DNA from: a virus
Taxonomy: Duplodnaviria > Heunggongvirae > Uroviricota > Caudoviricetes
Reading direction: 5' to 3' (one strand)
Length of the DNA stretch: 8,885 nt
IMG/VR virus record: IMGVR_UViG_2609460067_000009
The stretch's first letter is position 1. Every line of letters starts with the position of its first letter. Below are positions 4,543-6,473 of this stretch, piece by piece. The notes under the pieces are model-generated. The model made no database searches, had not been told where the DNA came from, and saw nothing but the letters and a program-made list of their open reading frames with translations. The position numbers and the translations under genes are program-made.

Positions 4543-5401
4543 AGATGCCTGTTGGCTCGTCCGGCAGGTCAAATGTGGAGCGCAGGCTACGCGCTGTGCT
4601 TTCCAGTTGACAGACCAGGCCTGCCATGAAGTCTCTGGGGGTATCAATCATGTTTTCAGCACAATATGCGCACAGCGTCTCAAAAGCGCTGGACAGTCGG
4701 ACGGCGATAGCAGATTCCGCCTCAACCGCTAATGCTGTTACTTCCGCCCGCAGCTTCTTAACCTCCTCATCAGGCTCAGGCGGCTGAATACGGGATTTCT
4801 TCTCCAGTCTGGTGGAGAGTGAATCTATTTTTTCATTTTTGTCGGCGAGTACGCGCTGTTGTGCTGCGTTGGTTTCGCGCGCTTCGCGCAGGGCCTGACG
4901 CAATTCACGTACTGACATGCGATCAACGTCGTCAAGCGTCAGGCCGGCAACTGTGCCGCCGTCGGCCAATTCATCAAGTTCTTCATTATCCAGAACCATC
5001 AGGTCGTACAGTTTGGCTTTCCCCAAAACGCTCAACGTTGAGCGTTTTGTTGGCTCATCACCTTCTCCCAAAAACTTCATACTGGCTTGCATCATGCGGC
5101 GAGCAACTTGTGGTGCAAGTCCGAGTTCATTTTCTAAAATGTTTGTAAAATCACCGTGTGGCTCATTTTCTTTTAAGATGATCAGCCGCTTACCCGCTTC
5201 CAGCATAGATTCAGCACTCTGCGCCATATAAAAACGTGCTTCGTGAACAATGCGATCACGTTCATAAGGCAGTCCATCACCAAACTGCTGCATAATTTCC
5301 ATGCGATGCTGTGTCATAGCGTTCAAATTGACATTGATGTTATCTGACAGCGGAACCTCAACATTCAGTTCAGTGTTAACGGGTGATTTGGTGCGTCCCA
5401 T
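4535..5401 (-). CDS. hypothetical coiled-coil protein (early operon, between the regulators and the transposase)
   Basis: 288-aa ORF with an AAGGAG ribosome-binding site that overlaps the stop of the upstream gene. The central region is rich in charged heptad-like sequence (RELRQALREARETNAAQQRVLADKNEKIDSLSTRLEKK). No catalytic motif recognised. Confidence 0.6.
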   Translation of the reverse strand: MGRTKSPVNTELNVEVPLSDNINVNLNAMTQHRMEIMQQFGDGLPYERDRIVHEARFYMAQSAESMLEAGKRLIILKENEPHGDFTNILENELGLAPQVARRMMQASMKFLGEGDEPTKRSTLSVLGKAKLYDLMVLDNEELDELADGGTVAGLTLDDVDRMSVRELRQALREARETNAAQQRVLADKNEKIDSLSTRLEKKSRIQPPEPDEEVKKLRAEVTALAVEAESAIAVRLSSAFETLCAYCAENMIDTPRDFMAGLVCQLESTARSLRSTFDLPDEPTGICD

Positions 5402-5411
5402 TGATTACTCC

Positions 5412-5720
5412 TTACAAACGACTACCTGAAATAACTCGTTGGTTGATTTCGTTAATACGATCCTGTGCACGCGCCATCTCGTGACTGTGAGCCATGGCGA
5501 TCTGTAGTAACTGGATTCCCGGTGCGAAACGTCCGTTCTCTAATTTCATGGCCAGTCCCTCTTCAATAAGGGTATTAAGTGCTCGATTGATATTCGCCGG
5601 GGACTCCCCCAGGGCTGATGCCAGTTCACCGTTAGAAACACCGTTCAGAGCATGACCGCGTAGAGCTTTGAGTACACGTAGGATGCGGGTCCCAGAACTG
5701 GAAATATTTACTTTACTCAT
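5412..5720 (-). CDS. winged-helix/HTH DNA-binding protein
   Basis: About 102 aa from the ATG at 5720. HTH-like segment (VSNGELASALGESPANINRALNTLIEEGL). The longer ORF-track start at 5783 would overlap the upstream gene and is rejected. Confidence 0.6.
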   Translation of the reverse strand: MSKVNISSSGTRILRVLKALRGHALNGVSNGELASALGESPANINRALNTLIEEGLAMKLENGRFAPGIQLLQIAMAHSHEMARAQDRINEINQRVISGSRL

Positions 5721-5772
5721 GTCACATTTCCATTTTTGCAATATGTGATAACCTGTTGCATATGTGGAAAAT
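5721..5772. promoter_or_regulatory. intergenic region with direct repeats TTGCA(A)TATGTG (putative regulator-binding sites)
   Basis: TTGCAATATGTG at 5736-5747 and TTGCATATGTG at 5757-5767. The 10-mer ATATGTGATA at 5741-5750 recurs exactly at 5998-6007 in the divergent control region. Confidence 0.35.
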
Positions 5773-5961
5773 TTATGCCGCATTTGACGTGGGTTTTAAT
5801 CCCAGTTTTACGGCAATTTCATGGGCTTTGCCGTAACGAGCTTTGGTCTGTCCATTGAGAACACGATAGACCTCATTGCGGCTGTAGCCGTGTTCTTCGG
5901 CCCAGCGGGTAAACGTGATACCACGCTGACGGAAGAGATTTTTAACTTGTTCGGAAGTCAT
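5773..5961 (-). CDS. small HTH DNA-binding protein at the Ner/Cro-equivalent position (Ner-like)
   Basis: 62-aa ORF, first gene of the minus-strand early operon, divergent from the repressor-like gene. Excellent AAGGAGA ribosome-binding site 5 nt upstream. Pattern RG-x-T-F-x-x-W-A-x-E-x-G...IA-x-x-LG resembles the Ner/Nlp family as I recall it. Confidence 0.55.
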   Translation of the reverse strand: MTSEQVKNLFRQRGITFTRWAEEHGYSRNEVYRVLNGQTKARYGKAHEIAVKLGLKPTSNAA

Positions 5962-6047
5962 TGTTGTCTCCTTTGTTGATGCAATGATGTTTGTTTTATA
6001 TGTGATAGATTATGAGAACTATTGTTCTCATTGTCAATGAGGTTTAT
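5962..6047. promoter_or_regulatory. divergent early/repressor control region (overlapping promoters and operator)
   Basis: AT-rich spacer between divergently oriented genes. Contains candidate -35/-10 elements (TTGATG ... TATATG), the ATATGTGATA motif and a perfect 8-4-8 inverted repeat. Confidence 0.45.
6012..6031. repeat. perfect inverted repeat ATGAGAAC-TATT-GTTCTCAT (candidate operator)
   Basis: 8-bp arms are exact reverse complements with a 4-bp spacer. It sits between the divergent promoters and the likely repressor start. Confidence 0.6.
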
Positions 6048-6473
6048 GTGAATTTTGATTCTCTTTGCGCGTCGCGGTTCAAAGCTGAGCGTTCGCGGTT
6101 ATCACTCAAGCAGGCTGAAGTAGCAGCCCTTTGTGGCGTTTCAAGAGAAATGTGGGGGAAATATGAACGAGGGGTTGCTGTTCCCGGAGGTGAGTTACTT
6201 GCAGCCTTTGCAAGAATTGGGGCCAATGTACAGTTCATTCTTACCGGGGAGTCATCAGGTATAACTTTATCACGTGATGAAATGGAGTTACTGCAGCACT
6301 ACCGGCAGGCACCATTACAGGTCAAAGGTTCAGTTTTGTCGGCCTTGACTACTGGCTCCTCCAGAGAACGGGCGGAACAGGTTATTCATGGAGATGTTCT
6401 GGGGAATGTTATCAAAGGTAACGTAACCATAGGAACAGGTGGAATAATGAACAAAAATACCAAGAGAAGATGA
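6048..6473 (+). CDS. XRE-family HTH transcriptional repressor (c-like lysogeny repressor candidate)
   Basis: HTH_XRE-like segment (LSLKQAEVAALCGVSREMWGKYERG). Divergent from the early operon. Start placed at GTG 6048, which has a GAGG ribosome-binding site 5 nt upstream. The in-frame ATG at 6012 lacks a ribosome-binding site and lies inside the palindrome. No S24 peptidase domain is evident. Confidence 0.65.
   Translation: MNFDSLCASRFKAERSRLSLKQAEVAALCGVSREMWGKYERGVAVPGGELLAAFARIGANVQFILTGESSGITLSRDEMELLQHYRQAPLQVKGSVLSALTTGSSRERAEQVIHGDVLGNVIKGNVTIGTGGIMNKNTKRR

Follow-up and report, generated by a model that had tools for sequence, protein, structure and literature searches.

Organization of the locus

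The window, by which we mean the whole stretch of 8,885 nt that was analysed (IMG/VR record IMGVR_UViG_2609460067_000009), represents the early/immunity region of an E. coli prophage, a transposable one of BcepMu-like type (Bcepmuvirus, PhiKM-related), of which a near-identical copy is inserted in csiE. The early operon occupies the - strand and encodes, in this order, a small helix-turn-helix (HTH) protein of the gp16 type, an IclR-type winged-HTH protein, a DUF3102 protein, an rve transposase, an ExeA/AAA_22 protein and Gam. The gene for an XRE-type repressor is read in the opposite direction from a short divergent region (Table 1). Prophages of this family are common in E. coli, with matches in 620 of 5,426 complete genomes, and are also found in many other Enterobacterales; their lysis-lysogeny switch has not yet been dissected. 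For the present analysis the locus was compared with about 90 related loci, drawn from E. coli genomes, annotated phages, a set of one genome per species (queried with the IclR-like protein) and IMG/VR (queried with the gp16 protein).

Two structural peculiarities of these prophages stand apart from the switch. Relative to the prophage of E. coli 504838, the window lacks 209 bp at 4545/4546 (L001 4938-5146), a loss that removes the DUF3102 gene's 3' end together with roughly 49 codons from the beginning of the rve transposase gene; the prophage in the window is probably transposition-defective. In the L033 prophage, GCGATAAATG occurs twice at the right end, at an interval of 22 bp, these repeats probably being sites for the transposase (places noted, L033 1460-1510 and 41120-41340), and the other end is broken by an IS66-family element, a second copy of which lies in the tail-fibre region.

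The first early protein had been labelled Ner-like in the initial sequence-only reading. The label suits its position in the operon and not its family: the protein is a member of TIGR04111 (NCBIfam), gives no match to the Pfam Ner family (HTH_35), and in Pfam reaches only a sub-threshold match to HTH_31. Its structure, modelled from the single sequence (pLDDT 81), shows a weak resemblance to the fold of 434 Cro/repressor (E about 0.2, TM about 0.5), and sequence searches of the PDB returned no relatives of either this protein or the IclR-like protein. The repressor is more likely to be translated from GTG 6048, which is preceded by GAGG 5 nt upstream and lies downstream of the predicted start of the proximal repressor promoter, than from the annotated ATG 6012, which falls inside the candidate operator palindrome and is devoid of a Shine-Dalgarno sequence.

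Table 1. Genes and sequence features of the early/immunity region (window coordinates)
Feature	Coordinates	Strand	Remarks
IclR-type winged-HTH gene (102 aa)	5412..5720	-	Homolog of BcepMu gp12
Inverted repeat TCACAT (5722-5727) / ATGTGA (5743-5748)	5722..5748		UCACAU of copy B can pair with AUGUGA
Copy B of ATATGTGATA	5741..5750		In the 52-nt spacer from the gp16 stop (5773) to the IclR-like ATG (5720)
TGATAACCT, TG-extended -10-like element (pC1-like candidate)	5746..5754	+	Points through the Ner-like gene to the repressor gene
Near copy TTGCATATGTG	5756..5766		In place of the GTGTAACAG box of relatives; unconserved
gp16-family small HTH gene ("Ner-like", 62 aa)	5773..5961	-	TIGR04111 BcepMu_gp16, E 2.8e-27; phrog_925
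Conserved leader block	5962..6013	-	Pe -10, copy A, CAAACATCATTGCATCAAC, Shine-Dalgarno AAGGAG
Copy A of ATATGTGATA (TATCACATAT on the early strand, 6007..5998)	5998..6007		1 nt past the Pe -10
TGATAGATT, TG-extended -10-like element (pC2-like)	6003..6011	+	Towards the repressor gene; overlaps the Pe -10 of the other strand
Early promoter Pe	6009..6037	-	TTGACA (6037..6032), 17-nt spacer, CATAAT (6014..6009)
Perfect 20-bp palindrome ATGAGAAC-TATT-GTTCTCAT	6012..6031		Fills the Pe spacer
XRE-type repressor gene	6048..6473	+	GTG 6048 likelier start; annotated start ATG 6012

A 10-mer repeated in two regulatory spacers

The exact 10-mer ATATGTGATA, which had been reported to recur in two control regions, was confirmed on the + strand at 5741-5750 (copy B) and 5998-6007 (copy A), as was the word TTGCAATATGTG at 5736-5747. 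Copy A is situated in the divergent region, where it is flanked by the Ner-like ATG (5961) and the repressor gene, and copy B in the spacer that follows the gp16 gene; both are genuine regulatory spacers, as had been supposed, and both copies are inside non-coding blocks that many relatives conserve. The near copy TTGCATATGTG is also present, although shifted by one base from the interval 5757-5767 given for it. It is already changed, to CCATATATGCAA, in a 98%-identical relative and is missing from relatives of 79-83% identity, and is treated here as chance.

How far the repeat departs from chance was estimated in two ways. At least two matches to the 10-mer, with at most one mismatch, appeared in 6 of 200 dinucleotide shuffles of the window, and an exact shared word of ten or more bases in 3.1% of 20,000 shuffled versions of the spacer pair (52 and 86 nt). 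The repeat taken alone is therefore only marginally non-random (P about 0.03), and as far as the window by itself goes it may be due to chance. Enrichment across the complete prophage, proposed as a check in the sequence-only reading, was not found, the 48-kb region of the near-identical E. coli prophage holding two copies only at no more than one mismatch, so that the motif is not enriched elsewhere. A loose cluster of two-mismatch matches near the IS66-interrupted prophage end was unconvincing as enrichment.

Several simple identities for the motif were considered and set aside. The GCGATAAATG repeats of the prophage end share only G.GATAA with it, and its interpretation as a transposase end-binding site was dropped for this reason. 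Among the sites of CRP, IHF, LexA, Fur and DnaA, none fits both copies in an informal by-eye comparison with consensus sequences. The idea that the post-gp16 spacer is a duplicate of the Pe leader was examined by local alignment against shuffles, and the resulting P values of 0.03-0.25 leave a duplication origin unsupported. A literature search on the motif strings yielded nothing relevant.

Early promoter, candidate operator palindrome and conserved leader

Pe agrees with the consensus at 11 of 12 positions, is the sole promoter called by the scan in 5600-6200, and has a -35/-10 layout that is common to all immunity types. The palindrome that fills its spacer is the candidate operator of the window's own repressor; at least ten immunity types were distinguished, each with a different palindrome at this place. 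Since the palindrome in the Pe spacer is a different one in every immunity type, the repressor operators are not the repeated motif. Nor does the motif belong to the set of immunity operators of the lambda OR/OL type: it fails to change with the repressor and is kept across at least ten types, with one notable exception in the L074/L025 type described below.

Homology of the window to the other immunity types (relatives of 79-83% identity) stops exactly at 6013. Comparison at homologous positions in L002-L113 revealed a sharp mosaic boundary at 6013/6014, inside the Pe -10, where at least ten immunity modules, each consisting of a repressor and its palindrome, meet one common leader at an identical base. 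On the early strand, the leader of these at least ten types reads [C/A/T]ATAAT-C-TA[T/A/C]CAC[A/G]NAT-NNNN-CAAACATCATTGCATCAAC-N-AAGGAG-ACAAC-ATG. Copy A is the TA[T/A/C]CAC[A/G]NAT portion, in which 38 unique leaders leave positions 3, 7 and 8 free; its beginning 1 nt past the Pe -10 means that it includes the expected start of early transcription. The leader block persists also in loci that have a gene other than gp16 in first position after Pe (Serratia loci; L025, L026), and copy A is thus tied to the promoter.

Three further observations concern the surroundings of copy A. The leader segment CAAACATCATTGCATCAAC (window 5962-5997), compared across the leaders of L034-L113, is more conserved than the 10-mer and is partly kept in Pseudomonas relatives (..CATCTTTGCATYAC..); it is a better candidate than the 10-mer for a gp16 site or a 5' UTR element. 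In the immunity type represented by L074 and L025, the operator is ATGTGAT-N6-ATCACAT (L074 1131-1165; L025 about 800-833), its half-site coincides with the motif core, copy A follows the operator at 12 bp and copy B repeats the motif core; the repressor itself might use the motif in this type. The half-sites GAGAAC and GTTCT of the window's own palindrome recur inside the gp16 gene (5857-5862 and 5891-5896), one of them in VLNG codons, and could be either auxiliary operators or a by-product of coding.

The spacer downstream of gp16

On the early strand copy B starts 30 nt before the IclR-like ATG, with 20 nt left between the motif and the ATG. The spacers that follow gp16 fall into families, one of which always carries TATCACATAT (early strand); its 25 unique contexts differ at 33 of the 44 flanking columns. 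Variants of copy B with one mismatch were absent among 88 loci, and a Fisher test on this invariance is circular, because the sequences were chosen by the exact motif. The other families have at least two mismatches at the place of copy B, where they read TTTC[A/G]TATAT, TTTCATATAT, TTTCGTATAT, TTTCACATAC, TTTCAAATAC, TTTCACCTGT or TTTCATTTAA, and the upstream GTGTAACAG box is common to all spacer families.

The copy B spacer remains directly after gp16 despite a gene of 79 aa inserted before the IclR-like gene. This optional gene (MKPSTLK...), found between the two in L079, L093, L096 and L111 (about 1440-1685), has a stop/start overlap. In L011, L014, L017 and L027 (about 1280-1500) a different small HTH gene (MNKQQVRARLVERGSSLRQF...) stands in place of gp16, preceded by a different leader, and its 3' end touches or runs into the start of the IclR-like gene, leaving no intergenic spacer. 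Loci in which gp16 is replaced in this manner contain neither spacer nor motif, and their IclR-like protein is still 91-94% identical, which argues against the winged-HTH protein, one of the regulators first suggested, requiring the motif. Copy B is also missing in Serratia loci whose gp16 is 80-85% identical.

Internal control of the early operon by a promoter at copy B, another early suggestion, finds no counterpart on the early strand. There is no conserved -10 there, the scan found no promoter, the pattern TGnTAnnnT discussed below occurs on this strand in 0 of 40 spacers, and no hexamer combines a conserved A-11 with a conserved T-7. Copy B is enclosed, furthermore, by an imperfect inverted repeat, TTTCCA...TGGAAA (5727-5770; 20-nt arms, 75% complementary), which dominates the predicted RNA fold of the window and is lineage-specific, being not found in relatives.

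Candidate promoters in the repressor direction

On the + strand, both copies present TGATA followed by three variable bases and a T. In the divergent region, TG[A/T/G]TA[G/T/A/C]ATT occupies the same position in 39 of 39 unique canonical leaders, against about 11 expected from shuffles. After gp16, exactly one TGnTAnnnT is found on the repressor strand in each of the 40 unique spacers (5.1 expected), and none in any of them on the early strand. The spacers reach this pattern through two solutions: the motif family has TGATAAYCT, and all others have TGTTACACT about 10 bp away, at a place that is degenerate in the motif family. The pattern was framed after inspection of the sequences, and relatedness among the loci makes the counts look more independent than they are; 40 of 40 is roughly equivalent to two independent solutions plus conservation.

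The variation of copy A follows the same pattern, position 3 being its free "n", positions 7 and 8 lying upstream of the TG, and the TG and TA remaining invariant. Examined as sigma-70 TG-extended -10 elements, both sequences possess the TG at -15/-14, T-12, A-11 and T-7. The hexamers themselves are weak (TAGATT, 4/6; TAACCT, 3/6), no -35 was found for either element, and neither was called by the consensus scan. The divergent region is too short for another sensible repressor promoter. The position and strand of the TGATAACCT element fit the layout of a distal pC1, and the stretch from it to the repressor gene contains no predicted terminator. Two further points count against a promoter role: the invariant bases of copy A are partly constrained by the Pe -10 on the opposite strand, and the fixed ATATG half of copy B is unexplained by the needs of RNA polymerase. 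Positions, conservation, the lack of co-variation between the copies and the consensus match of Pe are observations; that the + strand elements fire is what we infer.

The reading that we tentatively prefer, though it is still short of an even chance of being right, is that the two 10-mers are parts of a proximal and a distal promoter in the repressor direction, with no dedicated shared operator. At copy A, Pe and the proximal, pC2-like repressor promoter would overlap back to back. On the - strand, the copy would lie between the Pe -10 (CATAAT) and the Pe start; on the + strand, its TGATA would provide the TG and the first two bases of the extended -10 TGATAGATT driving the repressor gene. 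RNA polymerase bound in one direction would exclude binding in the other, and the repressor seated on the palindrome would block Pe while sitting just downstream of the start of its own promoter. Copy B would likewise supply the TGATA of TGATAACCT, the other and weaker extended -10-like element, a putative distal repressor promoter convergent with Pe and antisense to the gp16/Ner-like gene. The identity of the copies at 10 of 10 bases would then be lineage-specific, the remaining bases not being selected as such.

Alternative explanations

That the two copies form a common site for one regulator, the central proposal of the sequence-only reading, is unsupported by the comparison. Copies A and B evolve independently and without co-variation: their variants, paired with gp16 sequences, occur in every combination, and the recognition helices of gp16 (YSRNEVYRVLNGQ) and of the IclR-like protein (SPANINRALNTL) are unchanged across spacer families. 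Exact identity of A and B is confined to a few lineages, and in the second-largest spacer family the copies share 6 of 10 bases only. A shared operator is nevertheless still attractive as a rival, since gp16 must act in conserved DNA and copy B is fixed at all ten positions within its family, beyond what a promoter needs. It would consist of TATCACATAT bound by a protein conserved across immunity types, most plausibly gp16, and we regard it as doubtful while taking it seriously. The gp16 protein is conserved across at least ten immunity types whose repressor operators are all different, so any site of its own must be sought in leader or spacer DNA that is conserved; even the Pseudomonas and Burkholderia relatives have a ..TCACAC.. 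word after the Pe -10. The start of Pe and the likely -10 of the repressor promoter, where Ner acts in Mu, both overlap copy A, and gp16 bound there would shut the repressor promoter and damp Pe, as Mu Ner does; bound at copy B, it would block the distal repressor promoter or act as a roadblock. Against such an operator, 3 of the 10 positions vary in copy A, and variants of copy B depart from it by 2-3 mismatches, whereas the helix-turn-helix of gp16 stays constant. In B2-family loci the match between the copies is 6/10 only, and Serratia loci with 80-85% identical gp16 lack copy B. The 10-mer has no dyad or tandem symmetry, though this would be expected for a 434-Cro-like dimer, and there are two copies only in 48 kb. 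Loci in which another small HTH gene replaces gp16 have neither copy, in line with an operator, but linkage explains this absence equally well.

Copy B may, alternatively, function in RNA and be unrelated to copy A. In the early mRNA, its UCACAU would pair with the AUGUGA beside the IclR-like start codon, placing the ribosome-binding site in the loop and tuning translation of the genes after gp16. Pairing is possible in three registers across the spacer types (UCACAU/AUGUGA, CAUAUC+UUAUC/GGUAUG+GAUGA and UCAUAUAU/GUAUGUGA), substitutions (C to U and A to G, with A to G in the 3' arm of L074) keep it through G-U pairs, and 6 of 16 spacer variants fold better than 97% of shuffles. We consider this hairpin improbable all the same: its stems are weak (-2 to -10 kcal/mol, z-scores -2.9 to +0.8), AUAU words, being AU-rich, readily pair by chance, double compensatory changes were not observed in it, and the pairing is lost in L098/L105 (2-nt deletion), L112, L093 and L101. 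The minimum-energy fold of the window over the 80-nt spacer context uses a different helix, and no Rfam family was matched at its gathering score, the sole match being a chance-level one to mir-450 (22 bits against the 60 needed, E 0.39). Plain coincidence, in which both blocks are conserved for unrelated reasons and the identity of the 10-mers is meaningless, is unlikely too, if somewhat easier to entertain than the hairpin. It accords with the in-window P of about 0.03, with the loss of the A = B identity in most relatives and with the lack of significant alignment between leader and spacer (P 0.03-0.25). Opposed to it are the shared strand, orientation and TGATA core of the copies at conserved positions, and the fact that TGnTAnnnT on the repressor strand is universal and strand-specific. 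These readings need not exclude one another.

Comparison with known switches

Phage lambda offers an analogy for the candidate distal promoter. Its PRE, which points in the repressor direction and converges on the early promoter, is situated immediately past the first early gene, where the next regulator gene has its 5' end; this PRE/PR topology matches that of the candidate in the window, as an analogy only. Unlike lambda, the window contains no CII-type activator site (TTGC-N6-TTGC), and nothing links the IclR-like protein to activation. A more elaborate proposal, which we put forward as a speculation with little chance of being correct, is that the post-gp16 spacer holds a PRE-like establishment promoter, convergent with Pe and antisense to the gene of the Cro/Ner analog, whose -35 region overlaps the start of the IclR-type gene. 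The sequence TCACAT-N15-ATGTGA, with arms at about -39 to -34 and on the TG, would then be the site at which the IclR-type protein, in a CII-like role, or gp16 sets repressor synthesis. If true, this would be a switch design undescribed for enterobacterial BcepMu-like transposable phages.

The Ner site of Mu is a 12-bp tandem repeat, its units spaced about one helical turn, and the 10-mer differs from it in having no tandem or dyad partner in either spacer. The placement typical of Mu Ner, an overlap with the early start and the repressor promoter, is seen at copy A and not at copy B. The window also departs from Mu in that its gp16 is no detectable member of the Ner family and its candidate repressor operator is a single palindrome in the Pe spacer. 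In overall plan the two are alike, Mu being a transposable phage with divergent repressor and early promoters and a small DNA-binding first early protein followed by transposition genes (PMC3820752). Besides the divergent PcM and Pe of Mu, its gene A contains another promoter, Pe*, that is read in the early direction (PMC3820752); one more in the repressor direction is credited to Mu by way of citation in PMC9936078.

In the B3-like Pseudomonas phage Fc02, strand-specific RNA-seq has shown that pE and pC2 overlap in a divergent region of 106 bp, and that repressor transcription in the lysogen comes from a distal promoter, pC1, located beyond ner and gene 10 and antisense to both (PMC9936078). 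Fc02 resembles the window in its homologous gp16-type ner (60% identity), its divergent repressor gene and its short intergenic region. It differs in that one more gene (gene 10) precedes pC1, a promoter that also drives overlapping exclusion genes, whereas the candidate element of the window is 19 nt from the gp16 stop. The pC1 and pC2/pE regions of Fc02 have no motif in common, and no sequence similarity was seen between the TGATAACCT region and that of Fc02 pC1; Fc02 is therefore a precedent for the architecture only. If the distal element is active, a repressor transcript running antisense through the first early gene would be a trait that these prophages have in common with B3-like Pseudomonas phages. 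What the comparison of loci provides is a map of the switch, consisting of a near-consensus Pe with an immunity-specific palindrome, a swap boundary at 6013, an invariant leader and two candidate promoters in the repressor direction, within which the repeated 10-mer appears to be a small and ordinary part of a known kind of lysis-lysogeny switch.
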